Assembly: GCA_023379265.1 (NCBI GenBank)
Contig: JAMCUI010000007.1
Span: forward strand, 14,780 to 78,779
Length of the DNA stretch: 64,000 bases
Direction: 5' to 3'
Source of the DNA: Patescibacteria group bacterium
GTDB taxonomy: Bacteria; Patescibacteriota; Microgenomatia; 2-02-FULL-39-11
Under the pieces are notes generated by a model. The model ran no database searches. It had not been told where the DNA came from and worked only from the letters and a program-made list of their open reading frames with translations. This document shows positions 1,691 to 25,405 of this stretch, piece by piece (positions within the stretch are counted from its first letter, which is position 1; every line of letters begins with the position of its first letter). Both the position numbers and the translations under genes were made by a program.

Positions 1691-1695
1691 AGCTT

Positions 1696-1768
1696 GCCAG
1701 CGTAGCTCAGTGGTAGAGCAGCGTCTTCATAAGGCGTGGGTCACAGGTCCGAATCCTGTCGCTGGTAC
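1696..1768 (+). tRNA. tRNA-Met (anticodon CAT), elongator type
   Basis: Full cloverleaf. Acceptor GCCAGCG/CGCTGGT (G1-U72), D-arm GCTC-AGTGGTA-GAGC, anticodon stem GCGTC/GGCGT with loop TTCATAA, T-arm ACAGG-TCCGAAT-CCTGT, discriminator A. No CCA is encoded. It could alternatively be Ile2 (lysidine), but a separate tRNA-Ile(TAT) is present in the window. Confidence 0.85.
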
Positions 1769-2079
1769 TGTATCACAAATCTCCGGTCCGAATCCTGTCG
1801 CTGGTACTGTATCACAAATCTCCGGTCCGAATCCTGTCGCTGGTACTGTATCACAAATCTCCGGTCCGAATCCTGTCGCTGGTACTGTATCACAAATCTC
1901 CGGTCCGAATCCTGTCGCTGGTACTGTATCACAAATCTCCGGTCCGAATCCTGTCGCTGGTACTGTATCACAAATCTCCGGTCCGAATCCTGTCGCTGGT
2001 ACTGTATCACAAATCTCCGGTCCGAATCCTGTCGCTGGTACTGTATCACAAATCTCCGGTCCGAATCCTGTCGCTGGTA
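1746..2079. repeat. perfect 39-bp tandem repeat array; each unit is the 3' 22 nt of tRNA-Met plus a 17-nt spacer (9 copies of the tRNA segment)
   Basis: The unit CTGTATCACAAATCTCC+GGTCCGAATCCTGTCGCTGGTA repeats head-to-tail without mismatches. The first copy of the 22-mer is the T-arm and acceptor 3' end of the tRNA itself. Stop-free frames on both strands produce the artefactual repeat-peptide ORFs seen in the six-frame track. Confidence 0.95.
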
Positions 2080-2086
2080 CAATATT

Positions 2087-3133
2087 TTAATAGAAAATGA
2101 TTGAAGTCAGCATATAATTGTATATATAGGTGATGTCCGAAATGCTGACATTACTGGCTATTCCAAACGATCCGTTGAACCTCGGAAATATTGAAGCTAT
2201 ATAGCTTTGTCCCAAAGCTCCCTGCGTATATAGAGTTCCGTTTACCCCATCAACAACTATCGGTACAACGTATGGTGGATTATTGTTTACCTGGGGCATT
2301 GTGTAATTTGCCGCCACTCCAAGCCCTATATGAGGCGTATCAGGAGAATTTATGTCATATCCCGGAGGAAATACCGCTATCCCCTCATGATTGTTGGAAA
2401 TACTTTTTATCATCTGCCAGTTTGATGGATATTGGATCATATACCTATCCTGTGGATTATCATAGACTGCCCATGTCACTTGTACGGGAGGTGTGGAAGG
2501 CGGAGTATAGACTTGAGTTTGCCCATTAGTATCTTGAAAGATTATCTGCACGCTAGTGACTGGATTGGGTGTAGGATTTACAGAATTTCCATTATTGGAA
2601 TTGACAGAGGTTTGTGAATGTGATGTATTTACTAATCCTTCCGAAGTTGACATCCCTCCCTGTTTAGAACTATTTGAAGTACTATTTTGGGAAGTTTGAT
2701 TTGGTACATTCCCGCTTCCGGTCACAGATAAACTATTTTTTTTATCTTCATTTCCCACATTCACACCTGTAACTAGTGGGCTTTGTGGGCTAGTAGCATC
2801 TGTACCGGTTTTCCTGTTTGTGCCTGGAGTAATCTTTAGTAATATATCAATTAGCCAATTTGGGTTATCTTGGCTTGTTGTTGGTATCAAGTCTCCTAAT
2901 TTATGCTTGTAAATAAAATTACTTGAACTTTGGGGAGGTTTAGGCAAAAAAATCCTAATAATTATCAGTATTGCTGCTATGCTTAAGACGCTTATAATTC
3001 CGGGGATAAATAACTTATGTAAGTGTGAGGGCAAAACCATTTTCTTCTTTGATTTTTCCGTAATCATGCCCTTGCTGTCTATACTGTAAGCCATAACTAA
3101 TTTTAGAAAAAAAGTTTTACCCACTTTTGCCAA
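2087..3133 (-). CDS. hypothetical membrane-anchored/secreted protein with Ser/Thr/Asn-rich linker
   Basis: 348 aa. N-terminal TM (IISVLSIAAILIIIRIFL), a low-complexity S/T/N-rich stretch, and a C-terminal globular region with no recognisable motifs. Confidence 0.45.
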   Translation of the reverse strand: MAKVGKTFFLKLVMAYSIDSKGMITEKSKKKMVLPSHLHKLFIPGIISVLSIAAILIIIRIFLPKPPQSSSNFIYKHKLGDLIPTTSQDNPNWLIDILLKITPGTNRKTGTDATSPQSPLVTGVNVGNEDKKNSLSVTGSGNVPNQTSQNSTSNSSKQGGMSTSEGLVNTSHSQTSVNSNNGNSVNPTPNPVTSVQIIFQDTNGQTQVYTPPSTPPVQVTWAVYDNPQDRYMIQYPSNWQMIKSISNNHEGIAVFPPGYDINSPDTPHIGLGVAANYTMPQVNNNPPYVVPIVVDGVNGTLYTQGALGQSYIASIFPRFNGSFGIASNVSISDITYIYNYMLTSIIFY

Positions 3134-3456
3134 TTCAAACTTGCATCCTGAGGCGTAGGCGATGGTTCCGCTATTGGAGAAACCGTAGGAAGCAAAAGTA
3201 CCACCTCGTCTTCTTTACCTAGATTCAATTTATCCCGCGCCTCCTTTTCTATATATTGCTTACTTTCCACTTCAGCTAGTTTTCTTTTCAGCTGGTTATT
3301 GTTGTTTTGTGCGTCCTGAAGCTGATTTTGGGTACTCTGTATAATTTTTTCCCGTTGGGAAATCTTTACCCATGAACGGACTATTCCTACAACAAGCATA
3401 ACAAACACTATCAAAAGTATCCAATTTAGCAGTTTATATCGGTCCATAATTGACAA
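3103..3456 (-). CDS. septum formation initiator FtsB/DivIC-like protein
   Basis: 117 aa. N-terminal TM followed by a coiled coil, and the family-typical motif YIEKEARDKLNLGKEDEVVL. Confidence 0.6.
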   Translation of the reverse strand: MSIMDRYKLLNWILLIVFVMLVVGIVRSWVKISQREKIIQSTQNQLQDAQNNNNQLKRKLAEVESKQYIEKEARDKLNLGKEDEVVLLLPTVSPIAEPSPTPQDASLNWQKWVKLFF

Positions 3457-3485
3457 AAATCCCTTCTTGATGTATTATAGGCCCC

Positions 3486-4355
3486 ATGAATTCAGATAAA
3501 AACACTGATTTGTCTTCTGCTCGTGAACAATTTATCAGATATCTCACAGAAAACAGAAGGGCTCATGCTACTATTTTAGCATACAGCAAAGATATAGAGC
3601 AGCTGGTCGCCTTTCTTTCTGACATGGGCAAAAAGCAGATTATTGAAGTAGAAAAAATAGATCTTGATGGCTTTCTGAAAAAACTTTCCACAGATGGTTA
3701 TACTCTTAAATCCCTCTCCCGAAAAATAAACTCCATAAAAACATTCTATCGGTTTCTTAAAAACCAAAATCTTATTACAACCAATCCAGCAGCAGAGATT
3801 ACCCACCCAAAATATGAGACTAAACCCCCCAGAATACTATCAAAGATGGAATATAGAGCTTTAAGGGACGCTTGCAGATCAGATATAAGAACTTATGCCA
3901 TCGTGGAGCTCTTCCTTCAGACGGGCATAAGAATTGGAGAATTGGCTAATTTAAAACTGATAGATGCCAATGAAAGAGAATTAATAATTAGACCTCAAGA
4001 GAGTCATCCGCAACGCTCAATACCTTTGAATAAGGCAGCCAAAGCTGCACTGGATAAATGGCTAATTATAAGACCAAAAACCAATGGCGAAGCTCTTTTT
4101 GTCACCAAAACCGGCAGGCCGCTTTTAGTTCGTAATATTAGGACTACTATAGATAGATATTTTAAGATTGCCGGTATTGAAAACGCCAAAGTAAATGATC
4201 TCAGACATACTTTTATTGCACACCATCTAGCTGCAGGAACAGATCTTACCATGATCAGCCAGTTAGTAGGACACAAAAGACTGGCTACTACAGAAAAATA
4301 CCTAGACCTCATAAAGGACAAGGCCGTCTCCAACCTGAAACTGGAAGAGCTTTAA
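3486..4355 (+). CDS. tyrosine site-specific recombinase, XerC/XerD family
   Basis: 289 aa. N-terminal core-binding SAM-like domain. C-terminal catalytic signature LRHTFIAHHLAAGTDLTMISQLVGHKRLATTEKYLDL, i.e. the R...HxxR...Y tail. Confidence 0.8.
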   Translation: MNSDKNTDLSSAREQFIRYLTENRRAHATILAYSKDIEQLVAFLSDMGKKQIIEVEKIDLDGFLKKLSTDGYTLKSLSRKINSIKTFYRFLKNQNLITTNPAAEITHPKYETKPPRILSKMEYRALRDACRSDIRTYAIVELFLQTGIRIGELANLKLIDANERELIIRPQESHPQRSIPLNKAAKAALDKWLIIRPKTNGEALFVTKTGRPLLVRNIRTTIDRYFKIAGIENAKVNDLRHTFIAHHLAAGTDLTMISQLVGHKRLATTEKYLDLIKDKAVSNLKLEEL

Positions 4356-4568
4356 CTTGAACTGTTGAGCATTAACGTCTCTTCTTACCTTACTCTCCTT
4401 CCTTTTCCGATATTATTAATTTCATCACTTGTGAGTCCAGATAAGTTGATTTTATTGTGAAACGTGAGGGATAAAAGCACTGTTTTTTCTGTTGAAGTAT
4501 TTAGAACCGAAACTCTTAAGTTTTCCAGCAGTGCAAACAATGAACAAGTTTTTTAATTGGATTTTATG

Positions 4569-4640
4569 TGGAACCGGATGGAGTCGAACCATCTACATCG
4601 ACTTTATAAGAGTCGCGTTCTGCCGGTGAACTACGGTTCC
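4569..4640 (-). tRNA. tRNA-Ile (anticodon TAT/UAU)
   Basis: Reverse complement folds as acceptor GGAACCG/CGGTTCC, D-arm GTTC-ACCGGCA-GAAC, anticodon stem CGACT/AGTCG with loop CTTATAA (TAT), T-arm GATGG-TTCGACT-CCATC, discriminator A. No CCA. Confidence 0.8.
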
Positions 4641-4756
4641 ATGCAACCTGTCCCATAAATTTGCCTCGATTACAAATTATTCAGACAGTCGAAAATTAAA
4701 GGAACAAAGCGCTAACGTGTCTGAAATTATAGAATATACGGGGAGAAATGTAAATT

Positions 4757-7102
4757 TTATAGTTTAGCGCGCTGGGATATTTCTGCTTCTACTAATTCCC
4801 TAGGCCTTCCATACTTCAACCGTGAAAGAGAAAGTATCGCCTCTGCCACCTTGGGGTTTTCAATCTTCTTTTGCGCTGCCATATCTTTTCTCAAATCAAC
4901 AGAAAATGGTGGAACCGGTTTATTCCCTACTATGGTATTTACATAGGCATTATAAACGTCAACGTTAATAAGATCTCCTTCATTAAATACCGGAGTAAAC
5001 CAGTGTTGTAAATAATTAGCATCAGTTACGCCTACTCTAAATGTAATAAGTGTCCCAACGTTACCAAAGACGGCATTTTTTACCTCCTCCTCCATTTGTC
5101 CTATAAACTGGTTAGCCACACAAAGGTTTAGCCTGAATTTCCTGGCCTCAGAGAGTATTTGGGCAAAATCAGGTGTTGCAAAATTCTGAAATTCATCAAC
5201 ATAAAGAAAAAAGTCTTTTCTTTTATCTTCAGGAGTATCCACCCGACTCATGGCGGCTACCAGAATTTTTGGCACCAGGATTAAACCAAGGAAACTGGAA
5301 TTTTCTTCTCCCAGTTTTCCCTTGGCAAGATTGACAAGAAGAATCTTCCCTTCATCCATCACTTTTCTAAAATCAAACGCACTTTTACTTTGTCCGATTA
5401 TGTTTCTCATAAGTTTATTAGTGACAAAACGGCCGAATTTTGAAACAATATAATCCAATACTTCAGATTTATGAAAATCTGAAGTCTGCGCAATCTGGTC
5501 AGTCCAATAACGTCTTACAATCGGATCCTGAACTTTTGGAAGAAGCTCCTGAACATATGAAGAATCAGTCAGAACTCTAACAACCTCTACAAAAGAAGCA
5601 CCTGGCTCCACCATAACAGTCAACATTGCATTTCTTATGGCGTGCTCAAATCGTGGGCCAATAATACCTGTTTTCTGCGGATCATAAAGTTTGTACATTA
5701 ACCCTATGATTGAAGTGACTATAAAATGTTTCTGTTCCTCGGTATAGGCTTCAAGCATATTAAGTCCCATTGGTCTTTCTCCATCTGAAGGATCAAAATA
5801 GATGATATCCTCAGCTCTTTCTGGAGGAATAAGAGGTAAAAGTCCCTCAACTAAATCTCCGTGAGGATCAATAACTGCAACTCCTTTCCCTTCCTTTATA
5901 TCCTGCAAAACCATATCTTTCAGAAGTACAGATTTACCAACCCCTGTTTTCCCAATTATATAAACATGCCGCCTTCTGTCATCAAGTTGCATGTAAACAG
6001 GACGCATAATTCCACGGTAGACACTTTTACCTAAATACATTCCCGATGTTGGAGTTTCGGCAGGAGCTGGGGCTTTTTTGGATGTTACCCAGTTGATATG
6101 AGGCGTTTCAATAGTTTTATTGGGAAAATGGAATATTGTAGCCAACTCTTCACTGGAAAGGATAGAAAGTTGCCTATGTGGCCAGTTCACCATAGGAAAA
6201 TACCGATATATAAAATCCACCATAAATGAACTCTTCATTAGGTGCTTGGCACGGGTGAAGTGATTTAAGTCGGAAGCAAACTGTGCAAAGACCGCCTCAA
6301 TATTATGAAGATGCATGTTGGCTGACTCAAGCGTTGTCGAGGTTACTACTACCCTTATAACAGTCTTAAAACCAGGTTTTGAGGTCTTATTTTCAACCGC
6401 TTCAAGTACTTTAGGATCAACATTATACTTTGCTTTTTCAGGATTGGCTTCATTTTTCTTGATGCTGGAAACGTAACTTCTACCCTTTTTCTTCCACTTA
6501 CCATCAGCGGGAGTTATCAATATTTGTATAGAAGCACCTTCCCCAGTCTGCATTTTTCCTAGTGCAGAAGTAACTGCTGAAAGAGGATCGACAGGCAAGT
6601 CCTTATAAAAACGCATCGGGTAAAAATCCGCATGCTGTAGTATATAGGAGGCAAAAGCTACCTTTCCGTCTTCATTAAAAATATTATACTCATCCACCTC
6701 CTTAATTTCTGCCTCTGGATACATTCCGTAGATCTGCTTTTCTAACAGATCGCGCAAATGGTGATGAACAGATATATAAAACTTTATGTCTCCAGGGGTA
6801 CCGACTATCTCAAACGAAATATGATCTGAAGCTTTCAGGAATGACAAAAATCCTCCGTGAGAGAGTGAAGCGAGAGAGGAAAAAAACTGTTCAGCCGCAT
6901 CAATTTTTATTTCATTATTTTTGGGAACCATTACCTGCAATAACACAAACTCGAGACTTTTTTTCTCGCGTCCCCGGTGTTTCCACCAAAGAAAAAGAAA
7001 ATATGAAAGAAGCGACAATCCTACTAAAAGAATTACCAACGCTCCCATAACCAAAGCTAAGTCTTCAAGCCTAAAAACAATTTGTGAAGGATCAGTGTAC
7101 AT
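4757..7102 (-). CDS. membrane-anchored P-loop ATPase, VirD4/TraG/TraD-type type IV coupling protein-like (FtsK-HerA superfamily)
   Basis: 781 aa. N-terminal TM. Walker A GKTGVGKS followed by VIDPHGD (the DPKGE-like T4CP motif). IIYFDPSD...GLNML (NPL-like). Walker B YVDEFQNF. ARKFRLNLCVANQFIGQM resembles the T4CP RKxG...Q motif. The ~340-aa N-terminal domain before the P-loop is unusually long. Confidence 0.5.
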   Translation of the reverse strand: MYTDPSQIVFRLEDLALVMGALVILLVGLSLLSYFLFLWWKHRGREKKSLEFVLLQVMVPKNNEIKIDAAEQFFSSLASLSHGGFLSFLKASDHISFEIVGTPGDIKFYISVHHHLRDLLEKQIYGMYPEAEIKEVDEYNIFNEDGKVAFASYILQHADFYPMRFYKDLPVDPLSAVTSALGKMQTGEGASIQILITPADGKWKKKGRSYVSSIKKNEANPEKAKYNVDPKVLEAVENKTSKPGFKTVIRVVVTSTTLESANMHLHNIEAVFAQFASDLNHFTRAKHLMKSSFMVDFIYRYFPMVNWPHRQLSILSSEELATIFHFPNKTIETPHINWVTSKKAPAPAETPTSGMYLGKSVYRGIMRPVYMQLDDRRRHVYIIGKTGVGKSVLLKDMVLQDIKEGKGVAVIDPHGDLVEGLLPLIPPERAEDIIYFDPSDGERPMGLNMLEAYTEEQKHFIVTSIIGLMYKLYDPQKTGIIGPRFEHAIRNAMLTVMVEPGASFVEVVRVLTDSSYVQELLPKVQDPIVRRYWTDQIAQTSDFHKSEVLDYIVSKFGRFVTNKLMRNIIGQSKSAFDFRKVMDEGKILLVNLAKGKLGEENSSFLGLILVPKILVAAMSRVDTPEDKRKDFFLYVDEFQNFATPDFAQILSEARKFRLNLCVANQFIGQMEEEVKNAVFGNVGTLITFRVGVTDANYLQHWFTPVFNEGDLINVDVYNAYVNTIVGNKPVPPFSVDLRKDMAAQKKIENPKVAEAILSLSRLKYGRPRELVEAEISQRAKL

Positions 7103-7145
7103 GGAAACTTAAAGCTATATTTACTAGATAAATCATTCTATCTTT

Positions 7146-7628
7146 CTAATCAGATTTTACTCTGATTATTTTTCCGTGTATGACTTTGAGCATTACATGA
7201 GCCTTTTTTAGTTTTTTGACACACCATACGGCCATCCATCGCAAAGCACTGCTTATTTGACTATGAAGTCCCGCTACAACCTGCTGATCCGAGATGGGCA
7301 AAACTACATTTGGTAAGGGGGTAACTGAAGCAACTAAGGGAATCGAAGCCCCAGATTGAGTTACTCCCAACTTTTTGACATCAGGAGGTAATTCAATTGA
7401 CTCTTTTATTGCTGTCACCCCCACCTCTGATACTTCTTTTGGTATCTCAACCTCTTTGGAAATCATCTGAGGTGTCTCGGAAGATGCAATTTTTATCGCC
7501 TCATGTTCTTTCCCTATCGATACAGATACTGTCTGATTCTTTACTCCCTTGTCTGACTTTATCCCAGAATTGCTTTTTACGCTTTGAGAATAATTCTTCT
7601 GTTGGGAGTTGGCAGGTGTGGTGTTCAT
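7146..7628 (-). CDS. hypothetical protein (Ser/Lys-rich, C-terminal amphipathic/hydrophobic tail)
   Basis: 160-aa ORF packed between the S-component-like gene and the ATPase. No motifs recognised. Confidence 0.35.
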   Translation of the reverse strand: MNTTPANSQQKNYSQSVKSNSGIKSDKGVKNQTVSVSIGKEHEAIKIASSETPQMISKEVEIPKEVSEVGVTAIKESIELPPDVKKLGVTQSGASIPLVASVTPLPNVVLPISDQQVVAGLHSQISSALRWMAVWCVKKLKKAHVMLKVIHGKIIRVKSD

Positions 7629-7663
7629 AATTATTCTTTAACTTAATTTATGCGGATAAACAG

Positions 7664-8296
7664 TCAGTTTTCCCTTGCTTTGTGATTCAATTTTATTCCA
7701 GAAAAATTAAGTGAAGACAGAAAAGTTTTTATGGTTTCAGCTGTAAAGAAAGAGATAGGAACTAAAACTACATTGCCTATGAGGTTGTATTTGAAAAAAG
7801 GCAAACCTAAAATATAAGCATCAACTAATCCGGATAATGTTCTTGGATACATACCCCAATTATCCAAAAACCATACGCCGAAATTCGTCCAAAGATAAAA
7901 CCAAAAAGACGCAGCAATACCCACACCTCCTGCCGTTAAAAGCTTAAAAACTAAATTTCTTTCTCCGGCAGCTTTACTTTTGAAATTTAGTTTCAAAATT
8001 CCCATCAAACCAATCACAATATAACCGCTCCATGTGAACATAAATATATTTGTATTTCCAATCAACACATCCGTAACCGCCATAATAAAAAAAGGTACAA
8101 CCAAAGCGTATTTTTTGCCCAAGTATGCAGCTGAAAGAAGAGTTGCTGAGGTAACAAATTCCACATTATCTCCGATATGAAAAACCGTTCTAGAGAGAAT
8201 ACCTAAAATTACTAGGATAAAAGCGAGTAAATATTTTTCTTTATCTTTTCTTCCCATTTTCCTCAAATTAAAATTTAGAATAAATCCATTCGACAT
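7664..8296 (-). CDS. small polytopic membrane protein, ECF-transporter S-component-like (candidate cobalamin/corrinoid substrate-binding component)
   Basis: 210 aa with ~6 predicted TM helices and a short basic C-terminus. Size and topology resemble ECF S components. It overlaps the DUF4430 gene and lies in an operon headed by a cobalamin-riboswitch-like leader. Confidence 0.35.
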   Translation of the reverse strand: MSNGFILNFNLRKMGRKDKEKYLLAFILVILGILSRTVFHIGDNVEFVTSATLLSAAYLGKKYALVVPFFIMAVTDVLIGNTNIFMFTWSGYIVIGLMGILKLNFKSKAAGERNLVFKLLTAGGVGIAASFWFYLWTNFGVWFLDNWGMYPRTLSGLVDAYILGLPFFKYNLIGNVVLVPISFFTAETIKTFLSSLNFSGIKLNHKAREN

Positions 8297-8741
8297 GGTC
8301 TCCTGGATATATCACATATCTATCAGCAGCAATAGTACCCGTTTTCCCATTTACCTTATATATCCAGCCGTATTGTCCACCATTTGCCCTATCGCCAATC
8401 TTGGTCACCATTATTCCGTATTTATACTGTTTTATCTCTATATCTATTTTCTTGTCAGTAGCCAATTTTTTAAGCGCCTGATATACTGTCTGTACGTATA
8501 CCTCGCCTGTTTCATTTTTTCCATTACCAAAATCAATTGACACTATTTCCAAAGATGTTACACTCTGCGTGGGTGACGGCTGCTGTTGATTGCTTAGCTC
8601 TGTGGTTTGAATATTACGGTTTACGATATTTGGTAAATTAATAACCGATTGCTGTTTTTGCAACACATATTGCCCAAAGACAACCAAAATTACTACGATT
8701 AAACCGGTAAATATAAACAATTTTTTTGAATTTCTTTTCAT
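8268..8741 (-). CDS. DUF4430-family (transcobalamin/intrinsic-factor beta-domain-like) secreted protein
   Basis: 157 aa. N-terminal signal anchor. The C-terminal motif GWIYKVNG...YVIYPGDHVEWIYS matches the W-x-Y-x-V-N-G ... D-G-D-x-V-x-W-x-Y signature of DUF4430 proteins, which are found next to ECF/cobalamin transporters. Confidence 0.5.
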   Translation of the reverse strand: MKRNSKKLFIFTGLIVVILVVFGQYVLQKQQSVINLPNIVNRNIQTTELSNQQQPSPTQSVTSLEIVSIDFGNGKNETGEVYVQTVYQALKKLATDKKIDIEIKQYKYGIMVTKIGDRANGGQYGWIYKVNGKTGTIAADRYVIYPGDHVEWIYSKF

Positions 8742-8796
8742 ACTGTCCCCCTTCCTTTCTATTGTGTCATATATGCTCCAGCCTTGACAAGTGGCG

Positions 8797-11283
8797 TTAA
8801 TTTATTGCTGTTTCTGAAGTAGCAGTGTCGCTAAAACTGTAAATTACTCCAGATAGGAGTATATTTGTTCTAAATCTCTTGTCATTCACTTTTATATTTT
8901 TTGTGTTTGCATTTTTGCCTTGAAATTTTCCTGAAAATAACAGTTTTTCTATTGATTTTACCTGCTGATCTTTGCCTTTTTTATACCATCTCCGGCTATT
9001 TTGACATTGTATTATATGCTGCTTAAGTTTGATAAATAAAACAAGACAATAAATTATAAAAAGAATCTCCCAATATGCTTCCTTATACTTATCCATTTCA
9101 AGATTTGACACCCGGTCTTGCAGTAATAATAACGGTAATAACCCATCTTTTAAGTTTAGGTATTGCTCCTCAAATAAGCTGTCATAACTTTTAAGAAATT
9201 CTATTTTCTCCTGTAACTGGTCTAGATTTTCTTGTGTAAATCTGTCGGAATAATCAGATATAAGCCGTTTCAGCTGAATATAGATAATTGTTGAAACAAG
9301 AAATTTAATCTGTTCGGGCATTTTATCCACTCTAAACACCTCCGTAAGTACTGACAATGAGGTAACAATATCTGAAATATTTTTGAGAATGGAAGGGATC
9401 TCTGGCTTTAAGAATGTCTGATCTCTAGAATCTTTGAGTAAATCTATTATTTCCTCAGTTAGAAATATCAAATCCATATATATTTCTCTTCTACCATTAC
9501 GAGTCAAACTATCCCGTTTTCCTGGATACGTAGCATTATTTTCCCCACATGTAAGAAAAGATTCCAATCTAAAATCATCAAAATATCTGAAAATATGTAC
9601 AAATCTTTCTGTAAAATCTGCATCCCACATCGGTTGAAAAATAAAACCATCCTTTTGAAAAGATGTGCTTTGTGAAATATCAAATCTATATTTATGCGCA
9701 ATAAGGCTATGTAATTTCATAAAGTCTTGCTGCACTTCTTTAGTATTTTGTGATAAACTAAATTCTCCAAATTGTCTACCTAACTTATTGCTATGTTCAG
9801 CGCTAAATTCTTTCTCTTCACTTAACTCTAAAGGTTTATTAGGACTCATCTCGATAATTTGTTTTTCGCTTCGTTTATAGCTCCCGGTCGTGCTTGAAAG
9901 TAGGGTTTTGAGATGACTTCTAGACTGATCTGGATTATGAGAAATCAGAAGAAACTGTTCAAAATTCAGTAATTGTTCTTCTAGTAAATCAATCTCAGCC
10001 AAAGTGTCTTTGACATAATTCCACGGCAATATTTCCTTTCGTTCATTGCTCTTTTCTTCACCATCTAAGATTTCTTTTTCTTCTTTCCCCTCCACGCTCT
10101 TTAACCATTCTTTTTTATCTAAAACATCTACTGGAAACACTTTGGGCAAAACAGTAGCTCCTACTGTATCATCAATCAAACTCCTCATAAAAGCATAAGC
10201 AGCCAACACACGCATCCGGTCTAGAGTATCAATCTCTCTAACCTCCTTGGCAAATTCGGTTTGAGATTTATCAAAATCACTTTTATTATCAGCATAAAAA
10301 TCTATCTCTTTGAAGTTTTCTTCTTTTTTCCTTTCTCTACCGTTTATCCTTTGAGTGGACATTCCATCAGACTCTAGTCTTTTGATACCATTTGTTCCGT
10401 TACCTCTACCTTCTCTAACAAAATCTTCTTCCACCTGTAAAACCAAAGCTTGAGCCATCATCGCAAAAGCTGTCTTTATATTCTTGTCTTTCTCTGCCAT
10501 CTTTTCCATTTCCCCTGCATAAAATTGCTCCTTTGCCTTATTTTCTGACTCTCTTTGGAAATCAGAGATTAATGTTTCCTGCTTAAACTTATCTAAAACG
10601 CTTTTCTCGCTTTCCCTCTTTTCTGCTGAAAACGATTGGGAAAATGATTCAAATATTTCCGTATGGTCAATATTTTTCCCCCGGGATTCAACTAAAACCG
10701 TTTCTTCTTCAATCGTATCGTGACGATCATGTTTTTCTCCAGTTACTCTATCCAAAAAATTCCATAGCGTGTCGCTATCCCCACCTACAGTATATGAAGT
10801 CAATTTGACGGTATCACCTTTTTTCTCTGCCTTATAAATCCTGTTATTTCTTCCGTGAGTATCCTTCGTCTCTTTCCTACTACTCACCCACACTGCAGTT
10901 ATATCAGACTCATCAGAAGCTATCTTATGATATTTATCAATAAGCTGACGATAGGTCTGCCCCCCATTCTCCTTATCATCAATCCATACCTCTGCCGCTT
11001 CTCCTTCCTGTGAGAGCAAAGTGTCCACGAATTCCTCCTGTCCGGAAATTTTATTTCTCACTTTTACATTTTTGCCTATCCTCAATGTAACTTGATTTAT
11101 GACGCTTCCATCGGTACTAAATTCATCCTGATATGTCCTCATATCCCGCGCCATGGCTGATACTGCTTTTTTACCCTCACCCAACCGCTCCATCACGCTA
11201 AAGGCTCTGGCGCTTGATAAATCATGATCTCCAGCTGAACCATTTGTTCCGATTCCCATCGGTGCAATCGCTTCAACCATCAT
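8797..11283 (-). CDS. large uncharacterised protein (828 aa), acidic/charged, single TM near C-terminus; first gene downstream of cobalamin-riboswitch-like leader
   Basis: Long ORF with no signal peptide and one hydrophobic segment (WEILFIIYCLVLFIKL) about 90 aa from the C-terminus. No catalytic motif recognised. Confidence 0.45.
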   Translation of the reverse strand: MMVEAIAPMGIGTNGSAGDHDLSSARAFSVMERLGEGKKAVSAMARDMRTYQDEFSTDGSVINQVTLRIGKNVKVRNKISGQEEFVDTLLSQEGEAAEVWIDDKENGGQTYRQLIDKYHKIASDESDITAVWVSSRKETKDTHGRNNRIYKAEKKGDTVKLTSYTVGGDSDTLWNFLDRVTGEKHDRHDTIEEETVLVESRGKNIDHTEIFESFSQSFSAEKRESEKSVLDKFKQETLISDFQRESENKAKEQFYAGEMEKMAEKDKNIKTAFAMMAQALVLQVEEDFVREGRGNGTNGIKRLESDGMSTQRINGRERKKEENFKEIDFYADNKSDFDKSQTEFAKEVREIDTLDRMRVLAAYAFMRSLIDDTVGATVLPKVFPVDVLDKKEWLKSVEGKEEKEILDGEEKSNERKEILPWNYVKDTLAEIDLLEEQLLNFEQFLLISHNPDQSRSHLKTLLSSTTGSYKRSEKQIIEMSPNKPLELSEEKEFSAEHSNKLGRQFGEFSLSQNTKEVQQDFMKLHSLIAHKYRFDISQSTSFQKDGFIFQPMWDADFTERFVHIFRYFDDFRLESFLTCGENNATYPGKRDSLTRNGRREIYMDLIFLTEEIIDLLKDSRDQTFLKPEIPSILKNISDIVTSLSVLTEVFRVDKMPEQIKFLVSTIIYIQLKRLISDYSDRFTQENLDQLQEKIEFLKSYDSLFEEQYLNLKDGLLPLLLLQDRVSNLEMDKYKEAYWEILFIIYCLVLFIKLKQHIIQCQNSRRWYKKGKDQQVKSIEKLLFSGKFQGKNANTKNIKVNDKRFRTNILLSGVIYSFSDTATSETAIN

Positions 11284-11319
11284 AAGAACTTAGAGAAACT
11301 ACATTTTCATTTAAGCCAA

Positions 11320-11345
11320 TAAAAAACCCTCTATCTCAAGAGGGT
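11320..11345 (-). terminator. intrinsic terminator (riboswitch expression platform)
   Basis: On the minus strand: ACCCUCU-UGAGAUAG-AGGGU hairpin followed by UUUUUUAUU. It lies between the aptamer and the start codon at 11283. Confidence 0.5.
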
Positions 11346-11454
11346 CAAAATGATCAACGAATTCTCAAGTTACCCAATTTCAAACAAGCAAATTATGTGT
11401 ACTTATTGATTGATTGGATAATTGTATTGTTTGTTGATTTATTACTTTCCTGCT

Positions 11455-11575
11455 CGGGATAAACTTGAAGGGGAGTTCCCGGCTTATATCGCAGAAGGCG
11501 AAATTCACGGTTGCGGCACAGTCCCTGATTTTCACAGGGTTCCTCTTTTCCTTCAATAGAGTTGTTAATTTACTT
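11455..11575 (-). ncRNA. cobalamin (B12) riboswitch, short-type aptamer
   Basis: The minus-strand RNA reads GGAACCCUGUGAAAAUCAGGGACUGUGCCGCAACCGUGAA...AAGCCGGGAACUCCCC. This matches the cobalamin riboswitch core GGAA-nnn-GGUG-AAA-UCC...GC-C-CCGCAAC-UGUAA and a B12-box-like AAGCC-GGGA...CCCC. It is followed by a terminator and then a gene. Confidence 0.55.
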
Positions 11576-12154
11576 CGTACTCAACCAGACATTTTCTTTT
11601 ACTTTTGCCATCTTATTAAGATATCTGGCTGTCTCAAAAAAAAGATCCGACAATCTATTTAAGTACACCAAGACTAATCTGTCAACATTGCTTTCTGTAT
11701 TATAAAGTCGCACTACTTCCCTCTCAGCTCTACGGCAGACAGATCGAGCAAGATGGGAAAACGATGCGGCTTTTGTGCCTCCCGGCAATATAAAATTTTT
11801 CAAAGGCTCAAGCTTTTCATCTATACTATCAATTAGCACTTCCATCTCACTATCACGCCCCTTTATGTTAACCAAATCGGATTTTCCAAGCGCCAGATGC
11901 GAACCAATTGAGAGTAAATCAGACTGTATTTTATGGAAAAAATCGGAAAGTTTCTTCTCTTTTTCCAAATGGGAAATAAGAACTCCAACTACAGAATTGA
12001 GCTCGTCAACTGTACCAAAAGCAACAACCCGCAAATTATGCTTCTCGACCCTTGTACCACCGTATAAAGAGGTTTTCCCATCATCACCAGTACGTGTGTA
12101 TATCTTTACTCTATTACCGGTTTTAATACTTCGTTTGGAATTTTTGCTTTTCAC
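11570..12154 (-). CDS. pduO: ATP:cob(I)alamin adenosyltransferase, PduO type
   Basis: 194 aa. N-terminal IYTRTGDDGKTSLYGGTRVEKHNLRVVAFGTVDELNSVVGV matches the PduO/MMAB signature (IYTRTGDxGxTSL...R...YG..DEL). Confidence 0.8.
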   Translation of the reverse strand: MKSKNSKRSIKTGNRVKIYTRTGDDGKTSLYGGTRVEKHNLRVVAFGTVDELNSVVGVLISHLEKEKKLSDFFHKIQSDLLSIGSHLALGKSDLVNIKGRDSEMEVLIDSIDEKLEPLKNFILPGGTKAASFSHLARSVCRRAEREVVRLYNTESNVDRLVLVYLNRLSDLFFETARYLNKMAKVKENVWLSTK

Positions 12155-12184
12155 GGAACCGCCTGTTCTTGTGTATAAAGTGAC

Positions 12185-14515
12185 TTAACATTCACTATAC
12201 CCGCAGCTGTAACACTTTTTACAACCTTCCTCAAAAGCCAACGATGCTTCTCCACATGAAGGACATAAATCATAGTCTGACTTTTCGGCGAGTAACGGCT
12301 GCTGCGTCAGGACTGATATTGTCGTCATACCATTTTGTATCTGATTATGCGCTACGCCATTTCCGTTTTTTATCTTGTAACCAAAATGCATTGCTAGCAC
12401 TTTGGCAACAGCATCCGGTAGTGACCTTACTTTTTTATCACCAAACCCTAAAGATTTTGATCCGCCAATACCGATAAGCTGATTGAATATCTGTTTGGCT
12501 CTTTCACTAGATGGAACGTTGGACTGCATCCTCAGCGCCAATGAAGCCAACCTACCCATAGCTTCTGCCATGGCAGTGACGTCAGATCCGGCCTTTCCGA
12601 CATTAATAAAGATTTCCAACGGTTCATTACTTTCACCGGTATTTATGGTGACAAAGGCCGCTCCAACTGGTGTATCGATCTGATATGTAGCTCCGTTTAC
12701 CATCATCGGTCTTGATTTTATCTGAGCTTTTGCCTCTCCATTGTGTTTTTCTTCCTTCTTCTCTTCAGTTTTTTCCGTAACTCTCTCCAACACTCCCGGC
12801 CTGCTACCATCTCTCATATACGTCATCCCTTTACAACCCAGATCATAAGCCAGACGATAAAGTTTTTGGACGTCTGCTACGGTATGCGTTTTGGGAGCGT
12901 TTACAGTCTTAGAGATAGAAGCATCCACATATTTCTGGATGGCAGCCTGCACCTTTACATGATCCTCAGGAGACAAATCATTGGCTGAGACAAAATATGA
13001 GGGAACAGGATCATTGGGATTCTTCTTTTTCCATTCTTCAAACAGCGGATGATAAAGCCTATGCTCTCCCAACCTGTCACGTCTGATGAACGAAAACTCA
13101 TAAACAGGCTCTATTCCTGAGGATACTCCAGCCAGAAGCGATGTGGAACCTGTTGGTGCTTGCTGTAGAAGAACTGAATTCCTTATGCCCCATTTTTTTA
13201 TTCCGTCCCTAATTTTCTTGGGCAATTGCTTGATAAAATAGCCTTTAAGATGTTTCTTTGTATCAAGTTTGGGAAATGATCCTTTTTCTTTGGCTATTTC
13301 AATTGAAGACTCGTAAGCAGCATCCCTTATTATCCTGTAAATTTTATCTATTATTTTGAGTGACTCGTCAGATCCATATCTAATCTTCATTTTTATCAGG
13401 GCATCTCCCAACCCCATCGTGCCCAAGCCGATACGTCTTTCACCGTTTTGCTGCACTTCCCTTATCTGGGGAAATACGTAAGCATCAGCATCAATTATGT
13501 CATCCTGAAACCTGACGCCAACTTTGGCGATTTCTGCCATTTGCTTGAGATCTATCCTTCCTTCCTCATCAACCAGTGAAGCCAGATTTATTGAGCAAAG
13601 ATTGCAGACTCCCCAGGCGGGTAGACCTTCTTCACCACAAGGATTTACGCAGTTTATCTTATTGAAATACCAATTATTAAACCATTTATTATATCTCTCC
13701 ATAAATACCACACCCGGCTCTGCTGAAGCCCAAGCAGCCTCGGCTATCATATCCCAGATTTTTCTAGCCTTTACTGTCTTCACCACTCTCACTTTTTTCC
13801 CAAGTTTTAACCAATTATCTAGATAACCATCCCATTTGGTATCATATTCCTTATCATTTATATCGGGGAACACCAGATCCCAATCACCATCTTTTTTTAC
13901 CGCATCCATAAATTTATCAGAAACACAAACCGAAAGATTGGCGCCGTTTATTCTGGATAAATCTCTTTTGACGGTAATGAATTCCTCGATATCTGGATGC
14001 CAATCCCACAACATAAGCATGAGGGCTCCACGCCTTGTTCCTCCCTGCTGGATGATATCTTTTGTTGCTACCGAAAAAAGTTCAGCCCAATTGCATGGAC
14101 CCGAAGAAAATCCATTTACCTTCTTCACACGGGAACCACGCGGCCGCAGAGATGAAAGGTTTATACCCACCCCTCCTCCTCTAGCCATAATCTCAACCAT
14201 TTGCTTTAGTGTTTCCAGTATTCCATCACGTGAATCTTTTGGGGAAGGAATAACAAAACAGTTGTAATAAGTTACTTTATATCCTGTTCCTGCTCCTGAT
14301 AGTATCCTTCCTCCAGGAACAAGTTTGAAATTTTCCATAGCATCGTAAAACTTCTTCTCCCAAGATTTTCTTTCTTCAGGCTTTTCCATCTCTGCCACAC
14401 CTCTGGCCACTCTTTTCCATAATTCTTCCGGTGTTTTTTCCTGGGGATTACCTTTATCGTCTTTTAAGGAGTAACGATCTAAAAAGACCTGTTCGCGGAT
14501 GCCTGTTAATTTCAT
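12185..14515 (-). CDS. nrdJ: ribonucleoside-diphosphate/triphosphate reductase, adenosylcobalamin-dependent (class II)
   Basis: 776 aa. Class II active-site region NPCGEEGLPAWGVCNLCSINL, a glycyl-radical-free architecture, and a C-terminal Cys-rich zinc ribbon CPSCG...CKKCYSCGYSEC. Confidence 0.9.
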   Translation of the reverse strand: MKLTGIREQVFLDRYSLKDDKGNPQEKTPEELWKRVARGVAEMEKPEERKSWEKKFYDAMENFKLVPGGRILSGAGTGYKVTYYNCFVIPSPKDSRDGILETLKQMVEIMARGGGVGINLSSLRPRGSRVKKVNGFSSGPCNWAELFSVATKDIIQQGGTRRGALMLMLWDWHPDIEEFITVKRDLSRINGANLSVCVSDKFMDAVKKDGDWDLVFPDINDKEYDTKWDGYLDNWLKLGKKVRVVKTVKARKIWDMIAEAAWASAEPGVVFMERYNKWFNNWYFNKINCVNPCGEEGLPAWGVCNLCSINLASLVDEEGRIDLKQMAEIAKVGVRFQDDIIDADAYVFPQIREVQQNGERRIGLGTMGLGDALIKMKIRYGSDESLKIIDKIYRIIRDAAYESSIEIAKEKGSFPKLDTKKHLKGYFIKQLPKKIRDGIKKWGIRNSVLLQQAPTGSTSLLAGVSSGIEPVYEFSFIRRDRLGEHRLYHPLFEEWKKKNPNDPVPSYFVSANDLSPEDHVKVQAAIQKYVDASISKTVNAPKTHTVADVQKLYRLAYDLGCKGMTYMRDGSRPGVLERVTEKTEEKKEEKHNGEAKAQIKSRPMMVNGATYQIDTPVGAAFVTINTGESNEPLEIFINVGKAGSDVTAMAEAMGRLASLALRMQSNVPSSERAKQIFNQLIGIGGSKSLGFGDKKVRSLPDAVAKVLAMHFGYKIKNGNGVAHNQIQNGMTTISVLTQQPLLAEKSDYDLCPSCGEASLAFEEGCKKCYSCGYSEC

Positions 14516-14566
14516 ACTTTTAATATAAGCTAAATCTTAATAATGACTGACAAAACATGAGACTAT

Positions 14567-15013
14567 TTACAACAATTTATTCAACTCTCTCTCAAAATCT
14601 TCCAAATCTACAAATCTTCTGAAAACTGACGCAAACCTTATATATGCAATCTTGTCTACTTTCTTCAGTTTGTTTGCAACCAGCTGACCTATTTTTTTAC
14701 TGTCAACCTCTGTCGTATCCAAACCTCTCAGTTCTCTTTCTATCTCATCTGTAATCCGCTCTATATCTTCTATTCCAACAAGCGTCTTTTCGCAAGATTT
14801 TATAATCCCGTGTTTCAATTTATCTCTGTCAAACTGCTCTTTTCTCCCATCTTTTTTTATGACAATTATAGGAACACTTTCCACTCTTTCGTATGTGGTA
14901 AATCTTTTCGTACATTTACTACATTCCCTTCTCCTTCTGGTTGTACCCAGATCTTCACTATCTCTTGTTTCAACAACCTCTGTATCGCTATTACTACAAA
15001 ACGGGCATTTCAT
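14567..15013 (-). CDS. nrdR: transcriptional repressor NrdR
   Basis: 148 aa. N-terminal zinc ribbon MKCPFCSNSDTEVVETRDS...CSKC followed by an ATP-cone domain. Confidence 0.9.
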   Translation of the reverse strand: MKCPFCSNSDTEVVETRDSEDLGTTRRRRECSKCTKRFTTYERVESVPIIVIKKDGRKEQFDRDKLKHGIIKSCEKTLVGIEDIERITDEIERELRGLDTTEVDSKKIGQLVANKLKKVDKIAYIRFASVFRRFVDLEDFERELNKLL

Positions 15014-15176
15014 TTTTTATTTATTAATTTTCTTATCAAAAAAAACTGTCTTAAACTATATATTGAGCTTCTAATGGCTAGTTTATAGTATAAAATCCAG
15101 TATTTTCAGTAATATTTTGGCAATATTTAGTCGTTTTTGGCGCATAAAAAACACGCGTTTGCGTGAAAAACTTTCA

Positions 15177-15192
15177 ACCCTATCTATAGTGT
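15177..15192. promoter_or_regulatory. candidate NrdR box upstream of nrdR
   Basis: ACCCTATCTATAGTGT matches the NrdR-box consensus acaCwAtATaTwGtgt at about 14 of 16 positions. A weaker second site is at about 15053-15067 (AAACTATATATTGAG). The spacing is not canonical. Confidence 0.25.
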
Positions 15193-15380
15193 TCAAAACT
15201 ATACTATGACCCTAAATAGACACTGTCAAGAAGACAAATTATATCAAACGACATCAGTTTAAAAATCAGCCTCAGGAAAATTTTTTTTCTTATAATGGCC
15301 GTATTTTCTTTAGTCTTTCTTTTCGTTTGTGAAAACACTTTTTCAGTTGGAAAATTATTGTATCCAAAAAACAGCTAATA

Positions 15381-15965
15381 TCACCTTGAGGCAGCAATCT
15401 GTTGTATCGCCTGATGAGTAACACCTAAGGCATCTAACAACCTTTTACTGTAATTTTTATCGTTACTGTTAGCGTTAATTCCGTTTATTATTTCCTCATG
15501 TTTTTTTGCTGCCAAATCCAGCTTATCAGCCAATCCCGGGGGTAAATCTCCTGTCTTTTTTATATCGTTTAACTCTACAGCAGCAGTCAGGAGATATTTT
15601 TCTCCTTTGGTAATAGTATCGATACTCAAGTTGTACTCATTCTTATCCCATAATTGTTGACCCATAACCAGCCGTTTATCAGAAAAAAGAAGATTAAGTT
15701 GTACCTTTCTAACCGAATCTTTGGTGAAAAAAAGCAGTATATGATCTCTTAATACTTTAAGAAAGTATAAAGGACTATCAGGTAAGATTCCTGGATAAGG
15801 CAATGTATATTCTACAGAGGGTGTAGGGGTAAGCGTGATACTGGGAATGGACGCCTCTGTCGTCTTTGATAGAACAGCGTAAACAGAAACCTGGGGAAAA
15901 ATAAAGATAAAAAGCAGGCAGAATATGGCTATAAATAATCTGCGAATCATTCTTGGTAGTACCAA
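15381..15965 (-). CDS. secreted DUF5667-like protein
   Basis: 194 aa. Signal peptide, then the motif YTLPYPGILPDSPLYFLK typical of DUF5667 proteins, which are common in CPR genomes. Confidence 0.45.
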   Translation of the reverse strand: MVLPRMIRRLFIAIFCLLFIFIFPQVSVYAVLSKTTEASIPSITLTPTPSVEYTLPYPGILPDSPLYFLKVLRDHILLFFTKDSVRKVQLNLLFSDKRLVMGQQLWDKNEYNLSIDTITKGEKYLLTAAVELNDIKKTGDLPPGLADKLDLAAKKHEEIINGINANSNDKNYSKRLLDALGVTHQAIQQIAASR

Positions 15966-25367: not shown

Positions 25368-25405
25368 AACTCTCCTAATAATTAAATTTAATAATTTATA
25401 TAAAA

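Follow-up and report, generated by a model that had tools for sequence, protein, structure and literature searches.

A cobalamin-riboswitch-like leader in front of a gene for an 828-aa protein raises the question of what the genes behind it do when B12 is scarce, and how much of such a system is new. The window analyzed here is a 64-kb stretch of DNA of an ultra-small Patescibacteria (CPR) bacterium. A preliminary description read the locus as a candidate for an undescribed, self-contained four-gene module for B12 acquisition, and placed an aptamer, a terminator and four packed genes on the minus strand 3' of pduO. All of these are present, every element of the locus lies on the minus strand, and their coordinates stand unchanged (Table 1). 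Our analysis supports a B12-riboswitch-gated locus that adjoins pduO and nrdJ, the gene of a class II RNR. It is probably a B12-repressed corrinoid acquisition locus, flanked on one side by nrdR-nrdJ-pduO, the cofactor users, and on the other by an unrelated unit of a small protein and an ATPase. The novelty lies in the family of the large protein, not in the uptake pair.

Table 1. Features of the B12 locus and its neighbours, in window coordinates
Feature	Position	Strand	Evidence or remark
781-aa membrane-anchored DUF8128/DUF87/TraD-like (HerA/TraD-like) P-loop ATPase	4757..7102	-	syntenic neighbour
160-aa protein	7146..7628	-	conserved family; separate unit with downstream ATPase
DUF6580 membrane protein, ECF S-component fold	7664..8296	-	PF20221 3e-30
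DUF4430 (transcobalamin beta-domain-like, SLBB) protein	8268..8741	-	PF14478 2.2e-11, residues 85-156
828-aa protein, uncharacterised family	8797..11283	-	first regulated gene
Intrinsic terminator	11321..11346	-	stem CCCUCU/AGAGGG, 6-nt loop, U6
Invariant element UCCCGAGCAGGA	11448..11459	-	3' of P1, mostly outside Rfam models
Cobalamin riboswitch aptamer, short-P6 variant	11453..11569	-	RF00174
PduO-type cob(I)alamin adenosyltransferase	11570..12154	-	PF01923 1.4e-55; TIGR00636 180.7 bits vs cut-off 108; directly upstream of riboswitch
Class II (adenosylcobalamin-dependent) RNR NrdJ	12185..14515	-	TIGR02504 569 bits vs cut-off 400
NrdR	14567-15013		TIGR00244

Composition of the locus

The adjacency to pduO and nrdJ is borne out by the TIGR00636 and TIGR02504 matches, and pduO and a class II nrdJ are kept upstream in L001, L002, L008, L015-L020 and L022-L025 (L numbers denote related loci). 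The bacterium is presumably auxotrophic for B12. A promoter of the locus could not be assigned.

The large gene and the DUF4430, DUF6580 and 160-aa genes share one strand and are separated by gaps of 35-55 nt or overlap. L001, L002, L015-L017, L019 and L024 keep this order, and no terminator-like site separates the DUF6580 gene from the 160-aa gene. This arrangement would fit a single functional B12 module comprising all four genes. We regard such a module as very improbable, since the 160-aa family is always found with the ATPase. The two genes stay together in L022, L023 and L025, where DUF4430 and DUF6580 are absent, and in L008, where the DUF4430-DUF6580 pair is present without any riboswitch and without the large gene; in L007 they are located on the strand opposite to the DUF4430-DUF6580 pair. 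The 160-aa gene, previously counted as the fourth member, thus belongs with the downstream ATPase and not with the B12 genes. The ATPase itself, which is strongly conserved (dN/dS 0.034), is probably outside the B12 module.

The regulatory leader

The leader had been described as a cobalamin-riboswitch-like aptamer with its own hairpin and U-tract terminator, and both parts of that description hold. The aptamer, which starts one base past the pduO stop codon, scores 32.8 bits with RF00174 in a covariance-model search (E 1.4e-4 over the whole window), only 1.3 bits above the gathering score of 31.5. Every related locus whose sequence extends sufficiently far upstream has a single copy of the aptamer core CTGTGCCGCAACNGT, correctly oriented and in the corresponding place, an agreement beyond chance. 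Among the orthologous aptamers the core CUGUGCCGCAACNGU and the box AGYCNGGAAC are invariant, and the P3 and P4 pairs each show 2-4 compensatory changes (10 sequences). Matches to RF01689 or RF00174 were found in 10-11 further loci, including L002, L004, L006, L011, L015, L018, L019, L022, L024 and L025, the best of them scoring 50.1 bits with RF01689; Rfam thresholds overlook several of these CPR riboswitches. In score, in core and covariation, and in its expression platform, the leader has the properties of a cobalamin riboswitch (Rfam clan CL00101), and ligand binding is predicted.

No other site on the minus strand within 4500-15400 looks as strongly like a terminator as the hairpin CCCTCT/AGAGGG at 11344-11327 with its T6 at 11326-11321, which lies 38 nt before the large gene starts. 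An equivalent hairpin followed by U5-8 is present in all 13 leaders analyzed and ends 1-100 nt (mostly 1-13) before the start codon. The element UCCCGAGCAGGA, of which TCYCGAGCA is common to all related leaders, pairs with the 5' arm of the terminator with dG values of -6.5 to -17 kcal/mol across loci. In 11 of the 13 loci the pairing is better than that of at least 95% of shuffled sequences, and compensatory changes in it are found in L004 and L006. Alternatively, UCCCGAGCAGGA can fold into a mini-hairpin, UCC(CGAGCA)GGA. We propose from these pairings that UCCCGAGCAGGA is the antiterminator strand, and that the leader would work as a transcriptional OFF switch. When corrinoid is scarce, UCCCGAGCAGGA would pair with the 5' arm of the hairpin as antiterminator and RNA polymerase would read on. 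When corrinoid is bound, UCCCGAGCAGGA would be withheld, the hairpin and U-tract would form, and transcription would halt before the first gene.

The leader resembles the class II and AdoCbl-variant riboswitches (RF01689, RF00174) in its conserved core, B12 box and P3-P6 junction, and would share with them OFF regulation of uptake genes. It differs from the models in the invariant 3' UCYCGAGCA, which lies beyond them and is the proposed antiterminator. We see no clear sign of the canonical kissing loop between L5 and L13, since the loop sequence CGAGCA and the L5 sequence GCCGCA do not complement each other. The length of P6 also varies widely among the CPR aptamers, from AdoCbl-II-like forms that lack a P6 extension to forms with a long P6.

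The DUF4430-DUF6580 pair and its Lactobacillales counterpart

The second protein had been assigned to DUF4430, and PF14478 agrees, with 44.4 bits against a gathering score of 23.8 and with profile positions 3-72 of 72 covered. The protein begins with MKRNSKK followed by a hydrophobic helix of ~20 residues, which fits a signal anchor. The domain is also encoded in L015-L019 and L024. In the DUF6580 protein, whose true start is likely Met14 at 8257, we find the six-helix fold of S-components. Among PDB sequences, a DUF6580 profile detected CbrT alone, below the threshold (E 0.005). The two proteins share the motifs R..PNV..VT and MVIS(D/N), with ~11% identity in structural alignment. Sub-threshold matches of DUF6580 members to PF12822 (13 of 43, best 3.7e-5) and PF07155 (8 of 43) were also seen. 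From its fold and these similarities we take the DUF6580 protein to be a divergent ECF S-component of the CbrT-like kind and probably a distant relative of CbrT.

The genes cbrS and cbrT were reportedly defined by Rodionov et al. in 2009. Transport of Cbl and Cbi by ECF-CbrT is proven, and cbrT is part of an nrdJ-cbrS-cbrT-pduO cluster (Santos et al. 2018, PMC5997447) in which CbrS is a DUF4430 lipoprotein (PMC5997447; PMC9963975). A DUF4430 protein and a cobalamin S-component beside nrdJ and pduO are thus already known in Lactobacillales (PMC5997447; PMC9963975), and the module cannot be called undescribed. The locus is the CPR counterpart of that cluster, and its uptake pair is not new in kind. 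Both combine a class II RNR and PduO with an S-component of ~190 aa and a small DUF4430 protein, which in the CPR locus is predicted to be extracytoplasmic. Unlike in Lactobacillales, the S-component belongs to another Pfam family (DUF6580), the DUF4430 protein has an N-terminal helix as its predicted anchor and no lipobox, and these CPR genomes have no known ECF module. The riboswitch and terminator also sit inside the CPR cluster, and the first regulated gene encodes an additional protein of 650-1439 aa. As early as 2007, Burroughs et al. predicted B12 scavenging by extracellular SLBB/transcobalamin-like proteins together with ECF-type transporters (PMC1796856). The SLBB-CbiO/CbiQ operons described there likewise combine an extracellular DUF4430/SLBB protein with an ECF-family membrane component in hosts that do not synthesize B12; they also encode the ATPase and T components, and their SLBB proteins are often multidomain, whereas the CPR locus has a single-domain SLBB protein and an S-component only.

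The folds, homology and context of the pair are apparent from these comparisons; from analogy with the nrdJ-cbrS-cbrT-pduO cluster of Lactobacillales we infer its substrate and its transport function. The DUF4430 protein is predicted to be an extracytoplasmic corrinoid binder, the counterpart of CbrS. Anchored in the membrane and facing outward, it would capture the corrinoid, which the DUF6580 protein would carry across the membrane and PduO would adenosylate for NrdJ.

For transport, the DUF6580 protein may work alone or dock on an ECF module. The third gene had been taken for either an ECF S component or a solitary BtuM-like transporter. BtuM of Thiobacillus denitrificans is a solitary S-component-like B12 transporter whose invariant, essential Cys80 serves as cobalt ligand and in decyanation (PMC6072759). 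The DUF6580 protein, too, is small and membrane-embedded and is encoded in B12-related surroundings that lack ECF genes; BtuM, in contrast, is found in Gram-negative proteobacteria beside btuB. No column of the 43-sequence DUF6580 alignment holds a conserved Cys, and there is accordingly no counterpart of Cys80. The S-component part of the earlier assignment is thus retained, and the BtuM-like part is not supported, given the missing cysteine and CbrT as sole sequence relative in the PDB. The AxxxA motif in TM1, through which group II S-components dock on EcfT, is not conserved in DUF6580 either (A25-x-x-x-I/V29; the next small residue is G32). Without the BtuM cysteine and without AxxxA, neither a solitary nor an ECF-coupled mode is backed by a motif.

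In the ECF-coupled mode, the DUF6580 protein would be a group II S-component and would dock on an EcfA/A'/T module that is shared and has its genes elsewhere in the genome, and ATP hydrolysis would drive B12 import. We find this plausible, if not quite probable. The relationship to CbrT argues for it, and the ECF module of L. delbrueckii is encoded away from cbrT, with solitary CbrT giving no growth (PMC5997447). This dependence also removes support from the label self-contained. Against it stand the lack of conservation of the AxxxA motif, the existence of solitary S-components such as BtuM and BioY (PMC6072759), and the lack of EcfA and EcfT. The family scan found no ABC ATPase or EcfT/CbiQ family among the other ORFs of the 64-kb window, in agreement with the preliminary description, and the gene tables of the fetched related loci list no EcfA or EcfT. 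The absence from 64 kb says little, because the ECF module of CbrT is encoded elsewhere in the genome. The TPP riboswitch of the window was considered as a lead to an ECF module and rejected, as the operon behind it is for thiamine salvage.

The large protein family

The 828-aa protein had been described as without recognisable domains and without precedent in B12 uptake, and our searches concur. It has no match in Pfam, NCBIfam, PDB, PHROG or PADLOC; the best Foldseek E value is 0.07 and the best profile-versus-PDB E value is 0.23. The latter, a 59-residue match of the N-terminal domain to a 'corrinoid iron-sulfur protein', was treated as chance. A permissive Pfam scan of 32 N-terminal domains gave no recurrent family; DICT matched two of them (E 0.016). 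As neither PHROG nor PADLOC gave a match, we rejected an origin from phage or defence systems. A word-index search recovered three relatives with the 828-aa query and one with the N-domain alignment; an exhaustive profile search exposed a family of about 51 clusters or representatives, 650-1439 aa in length. A search of genome contigs with a 4-sequence alignment returned only the two loci already known. The family is new and restricted to CPR. The large proteins encoded behind B12 riboswitches in other CPR lineages (735 aa in L004, 302 aa in L006) were rejected as distant relatives.

The N-terminal ~280-290 aa (10414-11283) form a conserved alpha/beta domain, and AF2 gives pLDDT values of 60-87 for residues 22-290 only. 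The ~540 aa that follow evolve fast and are charged and helical, with a tail rich in lysine and arginine; this C-terminal part varies in length across the family, and most of the length of the protein is low-complexity helical sequence. With dN/dS of 0.135 in the N-domain and 0.32 in the remainder, the protein is under purifying selection. One N-domain position is strictly Cys or His in all 52 sequences (Cys in 36, His in 16) and is His20 in the window protein (codon 11224-11226). In several members this Cys is the sole Cys of the protein, and apart from Cys/His no type of residue that could serve in catalysis or as a ligand is conserved.

In all 15 informative loci the large gene is preceded by a B12 riboswitch, whether transporter genes are present or not, so that homologues of the gene do occur in B12-related contexts, and the large gene is the one most tightly tied to the riboswitch. 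In most loci it directly follows pduO. The DUF4430 and DUF6580 genes are not nearby in L011, L014, L022, L023 and L025, and the role of the large protein therefore need not be related to uptake.

B12 riboswitches precede metE or nrdDG in other bacteria, and OFF logic is typical of B12-independent isozymes. The large protein could, by the same logic, supply a B12-independent function for times of B12 scarcity and handle no corrinoid at all, which would suit its presence behind the riboswitch in the five loci without transporter genes nearby. We consider this unlikely: the protein resembles no enzyme family, has a single conserved candidate for a catalytic or ligand residue type, is mostly low-complexity helix, and is usually encoded directly after pduO, within the cofactor-supply cluster.

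Bacteroides BtuG and BtuH are large accessory B12-binding surface proteins in riboswitch-controlled uptake loci. An exported large protein could similarly capture corrinoid at the surface, or contact a host, and feed the DUF4430 protein and the S-component, with export possibly through the TraD/VirD4-like ATPase. Its gene is the first of the unit and lies beside that of a predicted extracytoplasmic binder, a coupling-protein-like ATPase nearly always adjoins, and the variable, fast-evolving C-terminal part, as in many surface proteins, and its lysine/arginine-rich tail would fit export. We find such export more doubtful still. Unlike BtuG and BtuH, the protein has no signal peptide or lipobox, and its N-terminus is conserved from Met1; Pfam and PDB searches detected no sequence or fold similarity to them. 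The single C-terminal TM noted earlier is a marginal hydrophobic stretch (Kyte-Doolittle 1.73) that contains charged residues and is conserved neither in the closest relatives nor across the family, and a conserved TM was therefore rejected. The ATPase unit is equally present without the large gene (L008, L004, L006) and very strongly constrained, and other secretion components were not seen.

Phytochromes hold their tetrapyrrole via an N-terminal Cys on a PAS-GAF scaffold, to which the arrangement proposed here may be likened. Cys and His are known protein ligands of corrinoid cobalt, as in BtuM Cys80 (PMC6072759). In our preferred reading, the N-terminal domain would bind or process corrinoid in the cytoplasm with the conserved Cys/His as axial cobalt ligand, and the protein, as a trap or chaperone, would draw the cofactor inward and hand it over to PduO and NrdJ. 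This role is tentative, possible rather than probable. The fuller version, in which the N-domain is a corrinoid-binding fold not seen before and the protein, made only under B12 scarcity, is a cytoplasmic high-affinity trap or chaperone that gives direction to uptake by an ATPase-less S-component and feeds PduO and NrdJ, is more speculative and rather unlikely as a whole. If true, it would be a CPR-specific answer to life on scavenged B12 for DNA synthesis.

CPR bacteria have minimal genomes and depend on other cells. Judged from 64 kb of genome, deoxynucleotide synthesis in this organism appears to rely on an adenosylcobalamin-dependent RNR; if this dependence holds, B12 scavenging would be tied to DNA replication. 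The locus suggests testable roles for two DUFs, DUF6580 as a CbrT-like cobalamin S-component and DUF4430 as its capture partner. The only consistent feature of the new family is control by a B12 riboswitch, and its Cys/His signature is typical of a cofactor ligand. If the large proteins handle corrinoids, they would be a new component of B12 trafficking and could explain net uptake by an S-component without an ATPase, a question since BtuM.

Linkage of the large gene to a cobalamin riboswitch

The 828-aa open reading frame downstream of pduO, here called the large gene, is preceded by an RNA element that matches the cobalamin riboswitch family RF00174 at 32.8 bits, against a gathering score of 31.5 in the Rfam search. 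This slim margin is offset by comparative evidence from related loci on other CPR (Patescibacteria) contigs (L001-L025). At the equivalent position, Rfam reported aptamers of RF01689, RF00174 or RF01482. A 15-nt core, CTGTGCCGCAACNGT, occurs in exactly one copy on the coding strand of each related locus that reaches far enough upstream, and is also exact in L016, L017 and L020, where Rfam gave nothing at E ≤ 0.05. In an alignment of ten aptamers, P3 and P4 carry 2-4 compensatory changes per pair. The riboswitch recognized in the preliminary description is thus supported both by its score and by its orthologues. Several orthologous aptamers are missed or under-scored by the Rfam thresholds; in L001, a ~32-nt insertion in L4 and a longer P6 bring the score down to 19.8 bits. 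Orthologues differ in the P6 extension, which some lack and which reaches ~100 nt in others, so the form of corrinoid sensed is not deducible from the aptamer.

Features of the window and of related loci
Locus	Feature	Positions	Strand	Remarks
Window	nrdR	14567-15013	-	
Window	Class II nrdJ	12185-14515	-	TIGR02504, 569 bits (cut-off 400)
Window	pduO	11570-12154	-	
Window	Leader		-	286 nt, between pduO and the 828-aa ORF
Window	Cobalamin aptamer	11453-11569	-	
Window	Invariant element	11459-11448	-	
Window	Hairpin and U6	11344-11321	-	
Window	828-aa ORF (large gene)	8797-11283	-	
Window	DUF4430 gene	8268-8741	-	157 aa
Window	DUF6580 gene	7664-8296	-	210 aa
Window	160-aa ORF	7146-7628	-	
Window	DUF8128/DUF87/TraD-like ATPase	4757-7102	-	781 aa
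Window	160-aa ORF and ATPase unit	4757-7628	-	
Window	Thiamine salvage operon	22688-27514	-	
Window	TPP riboswitch	27398-27514	-	RF00059, 65.3 bits
Window	Very large ORF	46336-51210	+	1624 aa
Window	Very large ORF	56512-60843	-	1443 aa
L001	Aptamer	7662-7832		
L016	Aptamer	~5640-5720		Unreported by Rfam
L017	Aptamer	~5670-5750		Unreported by Rfam
L020	Aptamer	~1960-2056		Unreported by Rfam
L008	Stretch within nrdR-nrdJ-pduO-DUF4430-DUF6580-small-ATPase synteny	5365-5524		No riboswitch core or large gene
L004	735-aa and 465-aa proteins flanking DUF4430	1611-5954		Behind B12 riboswitch
L006/L007	302-aa protein	6571-7576		Woesebacteria; own second AdoCbl-II aptamer

The preliminary description had set beforehand, as a test of its proposal, whether homologues of the large gene occur in B12-related contexts. 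For the large gene this test came out in favour of such a context. The riboswitch lies directly upstream of the large gene in the window and in all informative loci (L001, L002, L011, L014-L020, L022-L025; L003 shows the 3′ element only and L012 is too short). DUF4430 and DUF6580 genes follow the large gene in the window, L001, L002, L015, L016, L017, L019 and L024, and DUF4430 also follows it in the truncated L003 and L012; neither follows it in L011, L014, L022, L023 and L025. L008 has the DUF4430-DUF6580 synteny without the large gene and without the riboswitch, no core being found there with up to 3 mismatches allowed. The riboswitch and the large gene therefore behave as a unit, linked more tightly to each other than the large gene is to the transporter genes, and L008 suggests that they were gained or lost jointly. 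Two MAG contigs titled ‘uncultured Gammaproteobacteria bacterium’ in GenBank (L009, CAZFNL010000099.1; L010, CAYUNW010000003.1) are probably mislabelled, because in gene content and gene order they agree with the Patescibacteria window, the large proteins being 84% identical. Other CPR lineages (L004, L006/L007) have different uncharacterized proteins behind their B12 riboswitches, and in profile comparisons none of these is related to the large family.

The hairpin and U6 in the window leader (6 bp, GC-rich) form the top terminator-like site on the minus strand of the region, and a hairpin followed by U5-8 is present in 13 of 13 leaders analysed, ending 1-13 nt from the start codon in most; the distance is 38 nt in the window and 100 nt in L020. 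An invariant element, UC(C/U)CGAGCA(G/A)G, follows P1 directly on its 3′ side and falls for the most part beyond the Rfam models; the terminator 5′ arm (CCUCUCGGG and variants) is complementary to it. The duplex between them has an energy of -6.5 to -17 kcal/mol and, in 11 of the 13 loci, is stronger than at least 95% of those formed by shuffled elements. The arm of L004 follows two changes in its element: CCCGAG to CUCGAG in the element goes with CUCGGG to CUCGAG in the arm, and CAGG to CAAGG goes with CCU to CCUU. An alternative mini-hairpin of the element has a covarying closing pair, C-G in most loci and U-A in L004 and both L006 riboswitches. The loop of the element (CGAGCA) has no complementarity to L5 (GCCGCA). 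From these sequence features we read the leader as a putative antiterminator/terminator OFF switch, in which ligand binding would withhold the element. In L006 the element is located 13-16 nt upstream of the AUG with no terminator there, which suggests translational control. The aptamer begins at the pduO stop codon, so the transcript would arise by read-through from nrdJ-pduO or from a promoter within pduO; promoter-like matches are no more frequent than expected by chance.

The large protein family

The large gene is a real gene: in comparison with an 84%-identical orthologue, residues 1-290 show a dN/dS of 0.135 and the remaining residues one of 0.32. A hypothetical protein from a ‘Patescibacteria group bacterium’ has the identical sequence to the 828-aa protein. 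A word-index search with the 828-aa protein found three relatives only; an exhaustive profile search with its N-terminal ~290 aa (the N-domain) found 51 representatives at 50% clustering. In all of these, apart from a 371-aa and a 92-aa sequence that are probably fragments, the N-domain occupies the extreme N-terminus and the protein is 650-1439 aa long. The 828-aa protein had been described as having no recognizable domains, and a Pfam scan of nine long family members likewise found none in any. The single C-terminal transmembrane segment also described for it is not a family feature: no hydrophobic segment is position-conserved across the family and about half of the members lack any. The family has no signal peptide, and conservation of the N-terminus begins at Met1 (M-x-E-A...G-P...).

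Residue 20 (window numbering) stands out most: 36 of the 52 sequences have Cys there and the other 16 have His, with zero exceptions, allowing for two one-column alignment slips, and in several members this Cys is the only one in the protein. Glu54, Thr88 and Arg148 are invariant. The AF2 model (four sequences) has a pLDDT of 60-87 at residues 22-290 and below 50 elsewhere. Fold searches returned nothing significant; Foldseek showed a faint similarity to bacteriophytochrome PAS-GAF (E 0.07), which is a lead only. A Pro-rich hydrophobic motif (phi-x-P-x-phi-P-phi-phi) is located 60-250 aa past the N-domain in 14 of 52 members (27%, compared with 2% of shuffles); it is not universal, and occurs at residues ~378-388 and 625-633 of the window protein.

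Its linkage to the riboswitch, the missing export signals and a Cys/His dichotomy like that of a ligand lead us to the hypothesis that the large protein would bind or process a corrinoid in the cytoplasm through its Cys/His residue. The cobalt ligand of BtuM is Cys80 (PMC6072759). Alternatively, the large protein could be an exported capture protein or could have a B12-independent function.

Putative uptake genes and known systems

The 157-aa protein matches PF14478 across the whole model, in agreement with its earlier assignment to DUF4430. Its basic N-terminus is followed by a hydrophobic helix, which fits a predicted outward-facing anchored binder. In bacteria, transcobalamin-like SLBB proteins whose genes lie with those of CbiO/CbiQ-type transporters were predicted to be B12 scavengers (Burroughs et al., PMC1796856).

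The next gene encodes 210 aa or, more probably, 197 aa from a start at Met14; its product matches PF20221 (DUF6580) and no named S-component family. Its structure is predicted with confidence, at a pLDDT of 88.8 and a pTM of 0.83 (43-sequence alignment). Among PDB sequences the family profile matches a single one (E 0.005), a 182-aa membrane chain in 6FNP (ECF-CbrT), taken from its length and name to be CbrT, which shares the motifs R..PNV..VT and MVIS(D/N). Sub-threshold PF12822 matches are found in 13 of the 43 members. No cysteine is conserved in the 43-sequence alignment, and DUF6580 therefore lacks the defining Cys80 of BtuM; an AxxxA motif in TM1 was not found. DUF6580 may be either ECF-coupled or solitary, the two possibilities first proposed. 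EcfA/T genes are absent from the 64-kb window, as first noted.

Cobalamin and cobinamide are imported by ECF-CbrT, and CbrT alone is inactive (Santos et al., PMC5997447). The cbrT gene is part of an nrdJ-cbrS-cbrT-pduO cluster, and the shared ECF module is encoded at a different place in that genome (PMC5997447). The module cannot therefore be called self-contained from a search of 64 kb. The DUF4430 lipoprotein of the Lactobacillales system drops along with RtpR under aeration (PMC9963975). Both systems have a DUF4430 gene and an S-component gene next to nrdJ and pduO, and since the Lactobacillales cluster is already described (PMC5997447, PMC9963975), the pair here is a CPR variant of that arrangement, not an undescribed uptake module. 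The large family is new and uncharacterized; the uptake pair is known in kind. We found no literature linking Patescibacteria, cobalamin and riboswitches, and none mentioning DUF6580.

The 160-aa gene had been counted as the fourth of the B12 module. Its family is always directly upstream of the ATPase gene, and the pairing persists without DUF4430/DUF6580 (L022, L023, L025; E 2e-39 to the 160-aa family profile), without the riboswitch (L008) and on the strand opposite to DUF4430-DUF6580 (L007). We therefore regard this pair as a syntenic unit of its own, although co-transcription in the window may occur. Its ATPase is very strongly constrained (dN/dS 0.034). The ATPase is a membrane-anchored DUF8128/HerA/TraD-like protein that matches phrog_5156 (1.7e-94) and PADLOC mad8 (5.6e-17), and the two-gene unit is conserved in all CPR loci seen, also in L008, L022 and L007. 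Elsewhere in the window are two very large ORFs, and transglycosylase/transpeptidase (PBP) domains are matched by two ORFs at other locations.

Proposed corrinoid uptake and a thiamine salvage operon

The analysis establishes the aptamer and terminator, the complementarity between element and arm, the protein folds and domains and the conservation of the gene context. By analogy to the characterized Lactobacillales system, DUF4430 would capture the corrinoid, DUF6580 would translocate it, PduO would adenosylate it and NrdJ would use it. A TPP riboswitch in the window heads a thiamine salvage operon encoding a CytX-type HMP permease, ThiE, ThiM, an AIRS/ThiL-like protein and ThiD, which is a second riboswitch-controlled vitamin-scavenging locus of the window.
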